Source: Mycobacteriales bacterium (GTDB lineage Bacteria; Actinomycetota; Actinomycetes; Mycobacteriales; QHCD01). Taken from it: 64,000 nucleotides of DNA. Positions 22,505 through 26,718 of the stretch are shown here, in pieces. The translations under genes were made by a program, and so were the position numbers. Within the stretch, counting starts at the first letter, position 1; every line of letters starts with the position of its first letter. Location: contig DASXJE010000018.1 of the NCBI GenBank assembly GCA_036497565.1, positions 5,313-69,312 of the forward strand, read 5' to 3'. The notes beneath the pieces were generated by a model that saw only the letters and a program-made list of their open reading frames with translations, was not told where the DNA came from and did not search any database.

Positions 22505-23209
22505 TCAGACGTGCAGCCCGCACTCCACCTTGTCGCGGCCGGCCCAACGACCGGCCCGGGCGTCTTCGCCGGGCTTGACGGCGCGGGTGCACGGTGCGCA
22601 GCCGACCGAGGTGTAGCCGGCGTCGATCAGCGGATTGATCAGCACGCCGTGCTCTGTGGCGTAGGCGTCGACGTCGTCCTGTGTCCAAGTCGCGAGCGGG
22701 TTGATCTTCACCATGCTGCGCTTCGCGTCCCACGCCACGACCGGAGTGTCAGCGCGGCTCGGCGACTCGTCGCGTCGTACGCCGGAACCCCAGGCGTGGT
22801 AGGAGGACAGCGCGGCCTCCAACGGCCGCACCTTGCGCATCGCGCAGCACTGGTCGGGGTTGCGCTCATACAGCCGTGGGCCGTATTCGGCGTCCTGCTC
22901 GGCGACGGTCTGGGACGGCTTCACCGACAGGACGGTCACCGGCATCGTCGACGCCACGGCGTCGCGGGTGCCGATCGTCTCGGCGAAGTGGTAGCCGGTG
23001 TCGAGGAAGACGACGTGGATCCCGGGGCGGGCGCGCGACGCGAGGTGGGAGAGCACGGCATCGGCCATCGAGGAGGTGATGCACAGACGGTCGCCGAATT
23101 CGTCGGAGGCCCAGCGCAGCACGTCGAGGGGATGTGCGTCTTCCAACTCCGGCCCCGCCGCCTCTACCAGCGACACGAGCCGTGCGTGCTCATAGTCGGG
23201 AGCACTCAC
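22505..23209 (-). CDS. cysH: Adenylyl-sulfate (APS)/PAPS reductase, Fe-S type
   Basis: FLDTGYHFAET, CCAMRKV, SVGCAPCT and KVECGLH. The CC...CxxC pattern indicates the 4Fe-4S APS reductase type. Confidence 0.93.
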   Translation of the reverse strand: MSAPDYEHARLVSLVEAAGPELEDAHPLDVLRWASDEFGDRLCITSSMADAVLSHLASRARPGIHVVFLDTGYHFAETIGTRDAVASTMPVTVLSVKPSQTVAEQDAEYGPRLYERNPDQCCAMRKVRPLEAALSSYHAWGSGVRRDESPSRADTPVVAWDAKRSMVKINPLATWTQDDVDAYATEHGVLINPLIDAGYTSVGCAPCTRAVKPGEDARAGRWAGRDKVECGLHV

Positions 23210-23382
23210 GATGCCTCCTTAGTCGTCAAACCCAGGAACCGTAGCCGCCAGGCCCGACGGCATGCCGCGCACCGCCAGACTCCGGCCTCATCGCCACTCT
23301 CTTCGTCGCGACTGGGTCGGATGTCTTCCTCTCCGCAGTATGGACAGTAAAACGGCGGAGCGTGGGAAACCCGGCTCGTCAC
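23206..23382 (-). CDS. Small CxxC...CxxC (zinc-ribbon-like) protein
   Basis: PFYCPYCGEE...WRCAAC. GTGA overlaps with both sir and cysH. Confidence 0.75.
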   Translation of the reverse strand: MTSRVSHAPPFYCPYCGEEDIRPSRDEESGDEAGVWRCAACRRAWRLRFLGLTTKEAS

Positions 23383-25022
23383 GCCAGCCACTCCTCATCC
23401 GCGCGGGCGACGTAATCGGCGAACGATTCGTCACCTTTGCAGCGTTCTTGATAGCCCCTCAGCACTCGCTCGACGTAATCCGCGGTATCGCTGGCGGCGA
23501 CCCGCAGTCCCCGGAACTTCCGACCGAGTGTCGGATCCGCCCCGAGTTGTCCGCCCAGGTGTATCTGGAAACCATCGACGTCCTCGCCGTTATTCCCTCG
23601 CATCACCATTCCCTTGAGGCCGATGTCGGCGACCTGGAAACGGGCGCAGGAGTTCGGGCAGCCGTTGACGTTGATGGTCACCGGCGTGTCGAAGTCCGGC
23701 ATCCGGCGTTCGAGCTCGTCGACCAGCCAGCTGGCGCGGCCCTTCGTCTCCACGAGCGCCAGCTTGCAGAACTCGATGCCCGTGCAGGCGATCGTGCCGC
23801 GCCGGAACGCACTCGGCCGGACGGCGAGCCCCTCACCCTCCAGAGCGGTGACGAGTGCCTCGACCTGCTCCTCGGCTACGTCGAGAACCACCAGCTGCTG
23901 CTGCGCGGTGGTGTTCACCCGGCCGCCGCCGTACTCGTGTGCGAGGTCGGCGATACGGGAGAGCTGCGTGCCGTTGGTGCGGCCGGACCGCAGCGCGAAA
24001 CCCACGGAGAAGCGCCCGTCGGACTGACGCTGCACGCCGAGGTGGTCGCGCGGGCCGGTCGGAGCCGCGGGTGGTGGGCCGTCCTGGAGCGGGGAGTCGA
24101 GGTAGTCCGACTCGAGGATCTCGCGGAACTTCTCCGGGCCCCAGTCGGCCATGAGGAACTTCAGCCGGGCCCGGTTGCGCGACTTGCGGTAGCCGTAGTC
24201 GCGGAAGACGGCGGTCACGCCTCGCCAGGTCTCCACCAGCCGCTCGACCGGCACGAACGCTCCCAGCCGGACACCGAACCGCGGATTGGTCGACAGCCCG
24301 CCACCGACCCACAGGTCGTAGCCGGCAACGCCGTCCGGACCGGTCACGCCGACGAAGGCGACGTCGTTGATCTCGTGGTTGGTGCAGTGCCGGCCGCAAC
24401 CGGAGACCGAGGTCTTGTACTTGCGCGGCAGGTTGGAGTATTCGGGGTCGCCGACGACCAGGTCGGCCAGCTCGGCGAGCTGCCCGGAAGGGTCGAGGAG
24501 CTCGTCCTCGGCCACCCCGGCGAGCGGACAGCCGAGCATCACCCGGGGCGTGTCACCGCACGCCTCGGTGGTGGACAGCCCGACCGCCTCGAGCCGCCGC
24601 CAGATCTCGGGCACGTCCTCGATCCGGATCCAGTGCAGCTGCACGTTCTGCCGGTCTGTGACGTCGGCCACGTCGCGGCCGTACTCCTTGGCGATTCCGG
24701 CCACGGTGGACAGCTGCCGGGACGAGAGCCGGCCCCCGTCGATGCGGATCCGCAGCATGAAGAATTCGTCTTCGAGCTCGTGCGGCTCGAGTACGGCGGT
24801 CCGGCGACCGGGGATCCCGGCGGCCCGCTGGGTGTAGAGGCCGTACCAGCGGAATCGCTGGCTGAGGTCGGCGGGATCGATGCTGCCGAAGCCGTTCTTC
24901 GAGTAGACGTCGATGATCCGCTGCCTCACGGCGAGGCCGTCGTCGTCCCGCTTCACTCGTTCGCTGGCGTTGAGCGGCTCGCGGTGGCCCAGCGCCCACT
25001 GGCCCTGTGCTGTCGTTGGCAT
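23379..25022 (-). CDS. sir: Ferredoxin-dependent sulfite/nitrite reductase (SirA/NirA)
   Basis: FRWYGLYTQ, TDRQNVQLHW, LPRKYK, and siroheme/Fe-S ligands CTGIEFC...GCPNSC. Confidence 0.93.
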   Translation of the reverse strand: MPTTAQGQWALGHREPLNASERVKRDDDGLAVRQRIIDVYSKNGFGSIDPADLSQRFRWYGLYTQRAAGIPGRRTAVLEPHELEDEFFMLRIRIDGGRLSSRQLSTVAGIAKEYGRDVADVTDRQNVQLHWIRIEDVPEIWRRLEAVGLSTTEACGDTPRVMLGCPLAGVAEDELLDPSGQLAELADLVVGDPEYSNLPRKYKTSVSGCGRHCTNHEINDVAFVGVTGPDGVAGYDLWVGGGLSTNPRFGVRLGAFVPVERLVETWRGVTAVFRDYGYRKSRNRARLKFLMADWGPEKFREILESDYLDSPLQDGPPPAAPTGPRDHLGVQRQSDGRFSVGFALRSGRTNGTQLSRIADLAHEYGGGRVNTTAQQQLVVLDVAEEQVEALVTALEGEGLAVRPSAFRRGTIACTGIEFCKLALVETKGRASWLVDELERRMPDFDTPVTINVNGCPNSCARFQVADIGLKGMVMRGNNGEDVDGFQIHLGGQLGADPTLGRKFRGLRVAASDTADYVERVLRGYQERCKGDESFADYVARADEEWLA

Positions 25023-25093
25023 CGGTTACCTCGCGGTTGTGACGCTCCTGCGCGGCGCTGCGTCAGTACGCCTGCTGGTCAGGGTCTGCGGTG

Positions 25094-25180
25094 TCAGATG
25101 GACACCGGACAGGCGGCGCTGATCGCGTGCTGCAGATCGACATGCAGCCTCGCGACGAGAGGTACACCGCGGTCCGTCAC
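25094..25180 (-). CDS. Putative leader peptide of the sir operon: MTDRGVPLVARLHVDLQHAISAACPVSI
   Basis: Translated by hand. GTG start lies 7 nt after TGTGCGATCCT; contains the HVDL...SA.C motif; paralog at 25264-25344. Confidence 0.8.
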   Translation of the reverse strand: MTDRGVPLVARLHVDLQHAISAACPVSI

Positions 25181-25187
25181 GCCGACT

Positions 25188-25256
25188 AGGATCGCACATG
25201 ATCACTCGGTTCGCACACCCTGTCTGTCGACCGATGTTGCCGACCTGTGCGATCCT
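25188..25256. promoter_or_regulatory. Back-to-back divergent promoters sharing TGTGCGATCCT (extended -10-like)
   Basis: AGGATCGCACA at 25188-25198 and TGTGCGATCCT at 25246-25256, each exactly 7 nt from a leader start codon. Confidence 0.7.
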
Positions 25257-25263
25257 GTGCTGC

Positions 25264-25344
25264 ATGTCTGCGACCGCGGTGCTCGTCGCTCGCCTGCATG
25301 TCGATCTGCAGCGGGTCGCCAGCGCGGTCTGTCCGTCCGACTGA
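25264..25344 (+). CDS. Putative leader peptide of the cysG operon: MSATAVLVARLHVDLQRVASAVCPSD
   Basis: Translated by hand. ATG lies 7 nt after TGTGCGATCCT; shares LVARLHVDLQ and SAxCP with the minus-strand leader. Confidence 0.8.
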   Translation: MSATAVLVARLHVDLQRVASAVCPSD

Positions 25345-25462
25345 ATCGGGTCGGCGCCTCTCCCGTCGCACCATCTCGCCTCGTCTGCAGGCGCCGGACC
25401 CGGGTACGTCGCCCCTCACGACTCGACGCCACGAGGACCGACCAGCAGACCAGGAGAGCCTC

Positions 25463-25525
25463 ATGACCATCATCCCGACGCCGGCGGAGACCGTCGCAGG
25501 CGGCCCGATCGGCGGTGCCCGGTGA
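25463..25525 (+). CDS. 20-aa mini-ORF MTIIPTPAETVAGGPIGGAR coupled to cysG
   Basis: AGGAG RBS at 25452-25456. Its TGA overlaps the cysG GTG (GTGA). Confidence 0.5.
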   Translation: MTIIPTPAETVAGGPIGGAR

Positions 25526-26718
25526 GCGTGGGCTACCCGGTCGTCCTCGACCTGACCGGCCGCCGGGTCGTCGTCGTCGGGGCCGGGCCGGTCGCCGAGC
25601 GGCGGGTCGCCGGGCTGCGCGACGCGGGCGCCGACGTACACGTCGTGGCACCCGTCGTCACGGGTCACTTCGACGCCGACGTCACCGTGCACCGGCGCTC
25701 CTACGTCGACGGTGACCTCGACGGGGCGTGGATGGCGCACGCCTGCACCGACGATCCCGCCGTCAACGCCGAGGTCGCCGCCGCGGCCGAGCAGCGGCAG
25801 ATTCCCTGCGTGCGGGCCGACGCCGCGCCGGACGGGACCGCCCGCACACCGGCCGTCGCCCGCTCCGGCGAGGTGGTCGTCGCCGTGTCCTCCGACGACC
25901 CGGTCCGCTCCGTCCGTATCCGCAACCGGATCTCGACCCTGCTCGACCGCTCCGAGCTGCCCGTCCGCCGGTCCCGTCGGGAGGGTGCCGGCCGGGTCAC
26001 GCTCGTCGGGGGAGGACCCGGCGACCCCGGTCTGATCACGGTCGAGGGGCGCGCGCTGGTGGCCGACGCCGACGTGCTGGTCGTCGACCGGCTGGCGCCC
26101 CGCGGCCTGCTCGACACGGTCGACGACGACGTCGAGGTGATCGACGTAGGCAAGGCGCCCTACCGACACGGGGCGACCCAGCAGGAGATCAACGAGCTGC
26201 TGGTCGACCGGGCCGGGCGCGGTCTGCACGTGGTGCGGCTCAAGGGCGGCGACCCGTTCGTGCTCGGCCGGGGCGGCGAGGAGGTCGCCGCGTGCACCGA
26301 GGCGGGCGTGCCGGTGCACGTCGTCCCCGGGGTCACGTCGGCTCTCGCCGGTCCGGCGATGGCCGGTATCCCGCTGACCCACCGCGGGATCGCCGCCGAC
26401 TTCGCCGTCGTGTCGGCGCATCTGGATCCCACCCACACCGGATCGACGGTCGACTGGGCGGCGCTGGCGTCCGGCCCGGCGACCCTGGTGCTGCTGATGG
26501 CGATGGAGCGGCTCGAGTCGGTGTGCCAGACCCTGATCGGGCACGGCCGGTCGGCCGACACCCCGGCCGCGGTGGTCCAAGAGGCGACGACGCCCGCCCA
26601 GCGCACGCTCACGTCGACGCTCGGCTCGCTGGCCGCCGACGTACGCCAGGCCGGAATGGGGTCGCCGGCCGTGGTGGTCGTCGGTGAGGTGGTCCGGCTG
26701 GCCCGGACGGTCGGATGA
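25522..26718 (+). CDS. cysG: Siroheme synthase-like fusion (precorrin-2 dehydrogenase + uroporphyrinogen-III C-methyltransferase)
   Basis: N-terminal VVVGAGPVAERR; C-terminal GGGPGDPGLIT, RLKGGDPFVLGRGGEE and VPGVTSA motifs. Confidence 0.9.
   Translation: MSVGYPVVLDLTGRRVVVVGAGPVAERRVAGLRDAGADVHVVAPVVTGHFDADVTVHRRSYVDGDLDGAWMAHACTDDPAVNAEVAAAAEQRQIPCVRADAAPDGTARTPAVARSGEVVVAVSSDDPVRSVRIRNRISTLLDRSELPVRRSRREGAGRVTLVGGGPGDPGLITVEGRALVADADVLVVDRLAPRGLLDTVDDDVEVIDVGKAPYRHGATQQEINELLVDRAGRGLHVVRLKGGDPFVLGRGGEEVAACTEAGVPVHVVPGVTSALAGPAMAGIPLTHRGIAADFAVVSAHLDPTHTGSTVDWAALASGPATLVLLMAMERLESVCQTLIGHGRSADTPAAVVQEATTPAQRTLTSTLGSLAADVRQAGMGSPAVVVVGEVVRLARTVG

Follow-up and report, generated by a model that had tools for sequence, protein, structure and literature searches.

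Putative cysteine-sensing leaders of the Ms4527A/Rv2391A family, duplicated between two divergent sulfur-assimilation operons of an uncultured soil actinobacterium

Introduction

A 64,000-nucleotide stretch of an uncultured Mycobacteriales genome (assembly GCA_036497565.1, contig DASXJE010000018.1, positions 5,313 to 69,312; this whole stretch is called the window here) carries two divergent sulfur-assimilation operons, sirA-cysH on the minus strand and cysG-cbiX on the plus strand, separated by a gap of 499 nt (25023-25521). Within this gap, each operon is preceded by a short open reading frame (sORF) with a single Cys codon near its stop. The question raised by the locus is which part of these two leaders could sense cysteine, and how it could act on the genes downstream. 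A preliminary description of the same DNA had answered in terms of RNA: hexamers overlapping the Cys codon would pair with downstream hexamers lying within a common element, GACCAGCAG. In the model built on this, a stalled ribosome would break the helix and de-repress the operon.

The descriptions of Cys-responsive leader ORFs that were found in the literature concern Mycobacterium only and define them by polycysteine tracts. Leaderless polycysteine sORFs act there as Cys-responsive attenuators of a 'Cys ribulon' (Canestrari et al., 2020, bioRxiv 10.1101/834739). One of them, Ms4527A (VTSARNSITGSLVARRHVDKRVCSCCCLP), lies upstream of MSMEG_4527/Rv2391, that is, sirA (Canestrari et al., 2020, supplementary table; bioRxiv 10.1101/834739, also Mol Microbiol 114:93; PMC13096801). 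Low cysteine increases the Ms4527 protein, by a mechanism that was not dissected for this leader. In Ms5788A the Cys codons pair with the Shine-Dalgarno (SD) region, which a stalled ribosome frees; control there acts on translation, with termination inside the leader excluded (Canestrari et al., 2020). The counterpart in M. tuberculosis, Rv2391A, is annotated as a Cys-responsive attenuator on which ribosomes stall when tRNA-Cys is cleaved.

Here, we propose as the likely reading that the window holds two divergent, probably leaderless, Cys-sensing leader sORFs that tune the sirA-cysH and cysG-cbiX operons. The sORFs, their homology, selection at the peptide level, an invariant UGU codon near the stop, the gene context and the -10-like boxes are observed features. 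Judged by its sequence, the element is a duplicated leader of the Ms4527A/Rv2391A family outside Mycobacterium, with a single UGU codon and a conserved peptide.

Two paralogous leader reading frames

25180-25094, minus strand: leader sORF 1, in front of sirA; 28 codons from a GTG at 25180, peptide VTDRGVPLVARLHVDLQHAISAACPVSI; its only Cys codon is the UGU at 25111-25109, and it stops at 25096-25094
25264-25344, plus strand: leader sORF 2, in front of the cysG-cbiX operon; 26 codons from an ATG at 25264, peptide MSATAVLVARLHVDLQRVASAVCPSD; its only Cys codon is the UGU at 25330-25332, and it stops at 25342-25344
25106-25159: arm 1 of the inverted duplication I1 (54 nt, 80% complementary), the coding core of leader 1
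25282-25335: arm 2 of I1, the coding core of leader 2

Both leaders share the peptide core ..LVARLHVDLQ..SA.C.. and place their Cys codon four to five codons ahead of the stop. The start of leader sORF 2 was picked by comparison with homologs together with the position of a -10-like box. Longer plus-strand ORFs of 48 and 36 residues, which would include a Cys-Cys pair, were discarded, since stops or the -10 box occupy those positions in homologs.

The two arms of I1 encode the same peptide on both strands by way of synonymous differences. Since these include Arg written as AGG in arm 1 and CGC in arm 2, what has been conserved is the peptide. By sequence comparison, the two leaders are paralogous, and both are homologous to the mycobacterial Cys-responsive attenuator Ms4527A/Rv2391A: in a pairwise BLASTP comparison, the window peptide and Ms4527A share 9/17 identities (E=6e-4) along the alignment LVAR.HVD..(R)..S..C. 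The sulfur-gene context agrees with this membership, sirA-cysH and cysG-cbiX following the window leaders. The preliminary description was right that both leaders are real, paralogous, Cys-codon sORFs in front of sulfur genes; the two 6-bp helices and the 9-mer that it took for their functional parts fared less well, as set out below.

A leader family across Actinomycetota

The family was assembled from a SirA-based scan of reference genomes (80 loci), a metagenome pattern scan (120 loci, only 23 with leaders) and look-ups of the closest SirA proteins, which together gave 107 distinct leaders. In nearly all of the 80 genome loci a homologous sORF lies upstream of sirA. The 107 leaders come from Streptomyces, Nocardiopsis, Nonomuraea, Geodermatophilaceae, Jatrophihabitans and metagenome-assembled genomes (MAGs), where they stand 37-355 nt ahead of sirA, cysC, cysH-like and cysD genes; most are single-copy, with no inverted partner. 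A second leader type, LVARLHVDLQRV.SA.C, precedes cysC or a cysH-like gene; it stands before cysD-cysN-cysG in the nearest relatives of the window, where orthologs of the plus leader read MS..LVARLHVDLQRVASAVC, and before cysG alone in the window itself.

Position L(-16) is invariant among the 107 leaders, and R(-6), S(-3) and A(-2) are nearly so. The invariance of R(-13), H(-11), D(-9) and C(0) is not independent evidence, because the search pattern required these residues. Synonymous codons vary freely (Leu CUN/UUG, Arg CGN/AGG, Ser AGC/UCN), and in these alignments the family spans Actinomycetota with its peptide kept through synonymous codon changes. The choice of Cys codon, in turn, was not set by the search pattern: it is UGU in 107/107 leaders, and in 128/128 when variants with Tyr are included, set against a TGC to TGT ratio of 24:2 in six window genes. 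Throughout the family this codon stands 0-5 codons before the stop; most leaders have one Cys codon, and consecutive Cys codons occur in only 15/107.

The Tyr variants came from a relaxed search, which recovered a clade with Tyr in place of His. In the closest relatives of the window, loci L203-L210 (for example L207:2874-2960), the sirA leaders have Tyr for the otherwise constant His (LLVARLYVDLRRVASAACPV..) and are longer, at ~45 codons. At L210, cysG is directly divergent from sirA and has no leader of this family on its side.

The window and its more than 100 homologs thereby extend the sirA-type leader across Actinomycetota, usually with a single Cys codon and always with the rare UGU, and show it copied before cysC, cysH-like, cysDN and siroheme genes. 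Searches for leaders of this type should go by peptide motif and UGU codon, not by runs of Cys. Unannotated sORFs of this kind would explain the co-regulation of sulfate assimilation without a dedicated transcription factor.

Contigs from soil metagenomes (runs X8-X15, 24990-25540) carry four single nucleotide polymorphisms (SNPs): 25099 T>A, which changes Ile to Phe and falls in the loop of the hairpin described below; 25187 T>C; 25302 C>T, which is synonymous; and 25442 C>T, inside the plus-strand 9-mer. Many unrelated soil contigs match 25280-25333, the conserved sORF core, and nothing else around it, which shows that the leader is common in soil communities.

A probable leaderless architecture and the symmetry of the locus

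25188-25198, minus strand: -10-like box TGTGCGATCCT (extended -10, TGc-GATCCT), 7 nt upstream of the GTG at 25180
25246-25256, plus strand: -10-like box TGTGCGATCCT, 7 nt upstream of the ATG at 25264

No SD sequence is present for either window sORF. Because a -10-like box lies only 7 nt upstream of each sORF start, both leaders probably give leaderless transcripts. The same spacing recurs in the family: a NANNNT hexamer is found 6-8 nt upstream of the sORF start in 83/84 leaders, and relatives have TGTGCGAYCCT at the same place. The box TGTGCGATCCT may be a specialised extended -10 element or the site of a shared regulator.

The two boxes form a perfect 11-nt palindrome (I9, 100%), and both I9 and I1 are symmetric about the divergent promoter region. 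This symmetry, with the box kept in relatives, would suit an element acting at the DNA level, in which the 54-nt inverted repeat and the palindrome are transcription-factor operators for divergent promoters and the sORFs are incidental. The arms of I1, however, differ synonymously, including the three-base Arg switch CGC vs AGG, and homologs vary at third positions while the peptide is kept. Frame, stop position and Cys codon are maintained in 107 leaders, most of them without a second copy, and the I9 box sits where the -10 of a leaderless promoter is expected. We regard the operator explanation as very improbable and reject it on the strength of conservation at the codon and peptide level, retaining the reading of two translated leaders.

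Complementarity involving the 5' ends of the leaders was also seen. The first sORF codons of leader 1 are complementary to a segment near and after the sORF end (25164-25180 with 25078-25094, minus strand; I3, 13/17), and the minimum free energy (MFE) structure of the plus leader has helices of 25266-25278 with 25323-25329 and 25445-25450. Pairing of the 5' end in a leaderless mRNA could affect its own translation initiation.

The proposed stems and the shared 9-mer

25110-25115, minus strand: 5' arm CGCCUG of the minus stem, which includes the UG of the Cys codon
25069-25074, minus strand: 3' arm CAGGCG of the minus stem; in the MFE structure, its CAGG pairs locally with CCUG at 25083-25080
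25326-25331, plus strand: 5' arm GGUCUG of the plus stem
25446-25451, plus strand: 3' arm CAGACC of the plus stem; in the MFE structure of the full leader, 25445-25450 pairs with GUCUGC at 25266-25271 instead
25375-25391, plus strand: I2, an alternative partner (14/17 complementary) of 25442-25458, which covers the 9-mer and the SD

All strings named in the preliminary description are present. GGTCTG is found at 25326-25331 and CAGACC at 25446-25451, with AGGAG right after it at 25452-25456, on the plus strand; CGCCTG lies at 25115-25110 and CAGGCG at 25074-25069 on the minus strand. The word GACCAGCAG occurs at 25440-25448 (plus) and 25080-25072 (minus), forming the inverted repeat I22. The two stems differ by two compensatory changes. 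The placement of the partners next to a ribosome-binding site holds for the plus arm; the minus arm lies 47-52 nt upstream of the ATG at 25022 and 37 nt from the SD GAGG. The downstream plus-strand ATG is at 25463, not 25464, and opens a 20-codon ORF, not cysG.

Chance expectations were estimated from dinucleotide shuffles of the two spacers, counting 6-bp complements in the six registers that overlap the Cys codon. A complement in any of the six registers arises with P=0.21 for the minus leader and 0.38 for the plus leader; in both leaders together, P=0.081, and in both at the same register, P=0.027. Any 9-mer common to both spacers has P=0.068. These values are nominally suggestive, for a pattern chosen after the fact in spacers that are paralogous. 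There are 7 copies of GACCAGCAG in the window vs 0.62 expected, probably because the word reads as common codons.

In the folding ensemble, the minus stem has a pair probability of ~0.19 (forcing it costs 0.8 kcal/mol) and the plus stem one of ~0.007 in the full leader (2.8 kcal/mol). The plus stem does form in the MFE structure of the sub-sequence 25326-25470. There are also competing local pairs (CCUG with CAGG, GUCUGC at 25266-71 with GCAGAC, and I2).

In an alignment-free test, the reverse complement of each sORF 6-mer was sought in the spacer and in shuffled spacers. At the register of the proposed stems (-4 to +1 relative to the U of UGU), a complement was present in 4/107 leaders vs ~4.8 expected, which is no enrichment. 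The four are the two window leaders plus L001 (CAGACC) and L003 (CAGGCG), whose complements lie beside the SD. The minus stem is found in 0/8 orthologous sirA leaders, the leader of L210 having 5/6 positions. Among orthologs of the plus leader linked to cysD (L203, L205, L207, L208 and L209, five distinct), GGUCUG is kept and CAGACC occurs in none. Nor does GACCAGCAG appear in any other leader of the 107, and the plus copy reads GATCAGCAG in the sister strain L201 and in run X12, owing to the C>T SNP. A search for enriched spacer 6-mers yielded SD-like words and CCCUUC and no others; for sub-words of the 9-mer, enrichment reached ~2-5-fold at most, with counts of 3-5. None of the four soil-strain SNPs falls in the stems, and with so few variants strain variation is too little for a covariation test.

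The expected effect on the SD was likewise not seen. In a partition-function scan of 58 leaders, forcing a 30-nt footprint around the Cys codon to be unpaired did not raise SD accessibility (the family mean changed by +0.006, the window leaders by 0.00 and +0.04). RNAduplex energies between the stall region and the ribosome-binding-site window gave z=+1.84 for the sirA leader and -0.47 for the plus leader, and the family-wide signal was weak (mean z -0.35 vs -0.09 in the control).

The covariation on which the stem model was built is therefore a comparison of two paralogs within one genome, and it was not reproduced in homologs; on the comparative side, the lack of covariation across homologs is what the preliminary description had named as refuting it. 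In favour of that model remain the compensatory differences, the same-register value, the SD adjoining the plus 3' arm, the low cost of the minus stem, L001 and L003, and the published Ms5788A mechanism, which is of the same type. Weighing these against the family counts, the 9-mer that is a common genomic word absent from other leaders, the distant minus partner and the unchanged SD accessibility, we find the model improbable. Judging from the homologs, neither the two 6-bp helices nor the GACCAGCAG word is likely to be a conserved functional part; a lineage-specific function is possible, above all for the plus stem that abuts the SD. The stem observation is real and in that sense partly confirmed, though nothing shows it to exceed coincidence and shared ancestry. 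In the form proposed, the two stems would add little and are probably coincidental. Overall, the preliminary description is partly supported: right in kind (Cys-sensing leaders, no terminator, translational or Rho-dependent control), wrong or unsupported in its particulars (the helices and the 9-mer).

A hairpin after the Cys codon, and the spacer RNA

25107-25101 with 25095-25089, minus strand: post-Cys hairpin, CGGUGUC, loop CAUCU, GACACCG; 7 bp, -10.4 kcal/mol, spanning the stop codon, present in the MFE and centroid structures
25346-25403, plus strand: strong spacer hairpin, UCGGGUCGGCGCCU paired with AGGCGCC.GACCCGG

A different structure has comparative backing. In 8/8 sirA orthologs a hairpin is found at the same place as the post-Cys hairpin of leader 1, with arms of different sequence (CGGUCG/CGACCG, CGGUCA/UGACCG, GGGUGC/GCACCC, UGCCG/CGGCA). 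For 6-mers whose first base is +4 to +6 from the U of UGU, 15-17 of 60 non-Streptomyces leaders have a complement downstream vs 4.4 expected, a three- to fourfold excess. In Streptomyces, a recurrent CCAGCACCGCC after the stop forms the 3' arm of the hairpin and pairs with GGCGGGCUG(A); 82.5% is paired in register vs 28-35% when slid by 1-2 columns. From 36 Streptomyces leaders, RNAalifold recovered a single element, an invariant 4-bp CAGC:GCUG stem. On these comparisons, the post-Cys hairpin qualifies as the RNA feature with comparative support.

The spacers downstream are rich in C: the median C/G ratio is 1.62, 0/107 leaders fall below 1, and the window leaders have 1.29 and 1.55. This composition is like that expected of Rho loading sites. 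The post-Cys hairpin in the window is followed by CAGACCCUGACC, not by U residues, and a promoter and terminator consensus scan of 24900-25700 gave no match and no terminator-like site, so that the absence of a U-tailed terminator, already noted in the preliminary description, was confirmed.

In leaders linked to cysH-like genes (MTSALELSYLHHD..; L028(-), L057(-), L089(+), L100(+), L117(+) and L156(-)), a hairpin begins at the G of UGU and reaches the stop codon; beyond it, 15-25 nt before the SD, comes a U-rich run of the CCCUUCUUUUCUU type. This subgroup looks as if it has an intrinsic terminator, and nothing similar to its U-rich run after the hairpin is present in the window. Family members may therefore differ in their output mechanism.

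A possible mechanism

For the window leaders we infer the transcription start, the pausing, the cysteine response and the output step as follows. When Cys-tRNA is scarce, the ribosome would pause with UGU in its A site. It would then cover the last ~15 nt of the sORF and melt the hairpin lying immediately 3' of the Cys codon, and this melting would raise expression of sirA-cysH on the minus strand and of the 20-codon ORF, cysG and cbiX on the plus strand. With plentiful cysteine, the ribosome would terminate and leave, the hairpin would reform, and 70-120 nt of C-rich untranslated RNA would be exposed. UGU is the rare codon and is read through a G:U wobble pair; its use plausibly sharpens sensitivity, on the model of the rare CUA codons in the leu leader.

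Regarding the output step, premature Rho-dependent termination or polarity on the C-rich spacer is our tentative first choice, put slightly ahead of RNA refolding that limits access to the ribosome-binding site, itself a possible though doubtful candidate nearly as likely as Rho. An intrinsic terminator in the window is very unlikely. Translational or Rho-dependent control, which the preliminary description had anticipated, is a reasonable expectation.

Several results weigh against this reading as a whole or against its parts. With a single Cys codon each, the window leaders fall short of the published criterion, at least two consecutive ones. Rho is not to be assumed, because the mechanism of Ms5788A is translational and termination within that leader was excluded; the spacer of L134- is only 34 nt, which is short for Rho loading. 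Covariation in the Streptomyces hairpin was not above the shuffle control, and by local-hairpin z-scores, structure in the post-Cys window does not exceed that in the 5' part of the sORF. The post-Cys hairpin of the plus leader is weak (z=+0.48), and the folds of the whole leaders are no more stable than those of shuffled sequences (z=-1.09 and +0.34). Finally, every public run that holds the window sequence is a DNA soil metagenome.

The length of the conserved peptide suggests a contribution of the nascent chain, and the peptide's own part in sensing becomes a testable question. On such a view, an arrest peptide, L-x2-R-x-H/Y-x-D-x3-R-x2-S-A-x-C, would act from within the exit tunnel, slowing the decoding of UGU or directly sensing cysteine or a sulfur metabolite, and the parked ribosome would block Rho loading. 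The conserved residues span ~16 positions upstream of the Cys, roughly the length of the exit tunnel (cf. SecM and TnaC), and are conserved across orders through synonymous codon turnover. The lone Cys codon, always UGU and 0-5 codons before the stop, and the C-rich spacers fit the same picture, as does the remark of Canestrari et al. on conserved non-Cys residues, for which they suggested ribosomal interaction. Such conservation could equally reflect a function in trans or overlapping RNA constraints, and the expanded Cys tract of the mycobacterial members fits simple sensing of tRNA charging. We hold an arrest peptide to be an unlikely explanation at present. The same low credence goes to a broader scheme, in which peptide and rare UGU form an arrest sensor that lets a single Cys codon suffice and is coupled to Rho, the family being an ancient pan-actinobacterial regulon from which the polycysteine sORFs are derived. 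Sensing of Cys-tRNA by a ribosome paused at UGU remains the reading that we prefer.

Comparison with known leaders

The closest known systems are Ms4527A of M. smegmatis and Rv2391A. Like the minus leader, they stand upstream of sirA-cysH and have the core LVAR(R/L)HVD..RV..S..C. Ms4527A/Rv2391A are leaderless and head a Cys-responsive operon, and the window leaders are predicted to be leaderless by their -10 spacing. The mycobacterial leaders differ in having a CSCCC tract, whereas each window leader, outside Mycobacterium, has one Cys codon, and the window has a second paralog before a divergent siroheme operon. Ms5788A/Rv0815A, upstream of cysA2, is likewise leaderless, and a ribosome stalled at its Cys codons lifts the repression of downstream genes, a logic that the stem model followed. 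There, however, compensatory mutants showed direct pairing between eight consecutive Cys codons and the SD region; in the window, no pairing between Cys codon and SD is conserved or predicted to gate the SD.

Outside the Cys-responsive leaders, TnaC of the Escherichia coli tnaCAB operon governs Rho-dependent attenuation through a stalled ribosome. With the window leaders it has in common a short leader with a conserved peptide, a sensing position near the stop and a C-rich spacer without intrinsic terminator. It differs in its ligand, free tryptophan, and in blocking release at the stop codon, and for the window leaders roles of Rho and of a ligand are predicted at most. In the leu operon leader, work attributed to Carter, Bartkus and Calvo in 1986 is said to have found rare CUA codons at the sensing position. 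The likeness is the rare synonymous sensing codon, UGU being universal in the window family in UGC-preferring genomes. The leu leader, in contrast, has four tandem codons and a terminator/antiterminator, while the window leaders have one codon and no terminator; the hallmark of classical trp/leu-type attenuators (a hairpin with a U-tract, and an antiterminator) was not found in the window. The ermCL and cat leaders also use a ribosome stalled in a leader ORF to remodel a downstream hairpin, but they are drug-induced and have a four-segment SD-sequestering structure, and no such conserved structure was seen in the window family.

Gene context

23379-25022, minus strand: ferredoxin-type sulfite reductase sirA; its N-terminus agrees with homologs
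25032-25029, minus strand: SD GAGG of sirA, followed by the ATG at 25022-25020
23206-23391, minus strand: zinc-ribbon-like ORF of 61 residues between sirA and cysH
25452-25456, plus strand: strong SD, AGGAG, of the 20-codon ORF
25463-25525, plus strand: 20-codon ORF MTIIPTPAETVAGGPIGGAR
25522-26718, plus strand: siroheme-synthase-like cysG; the CbiX chelatase gene (cbiX) is also on this strand

The third minus-strand gene is a phosphoadenosine phosphosulfate/adenosine phosphosulfate (PAPS/APS) reductase gene, cysH. An Rfam cmscan of 24500-26000 at E<=10 gave sub-threshold chance hits only, none of them within 25023-25521. The source organism is an uncultured soil actinobacterium known from soil metagenomes alone. 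The nearest SirA proteins are 99% identical (same species, Joint Genome Institute soil metagenomes), and the next-nearest, from Mycobacteriales MAGs, Geodermatophilaceae and Jatrophihabitans, have 72-79% identity. At the position of the zinc-ribbon-like ORF, relatives have an ORF of 56-67 residues.

The TGA of the 20-codon ORF overlaps the GTG start of cysG at 25522 (GTGA coupling), and the CysD motif FSGGKDS was not found in the 64-kb window. The ORF looks like a cysD'-'cysN deletion scar that has retained translational coupling. In relatives, where a leader orthologous to the plus leader precedes cysD-cysN-cysG, the cysN stop and the cysG start overlap in the same way, and the CysN C-terminus (..TGATVAAGMV..) is similar to the ..AETVAGGPIGG.. 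of the 20-codon ORF.

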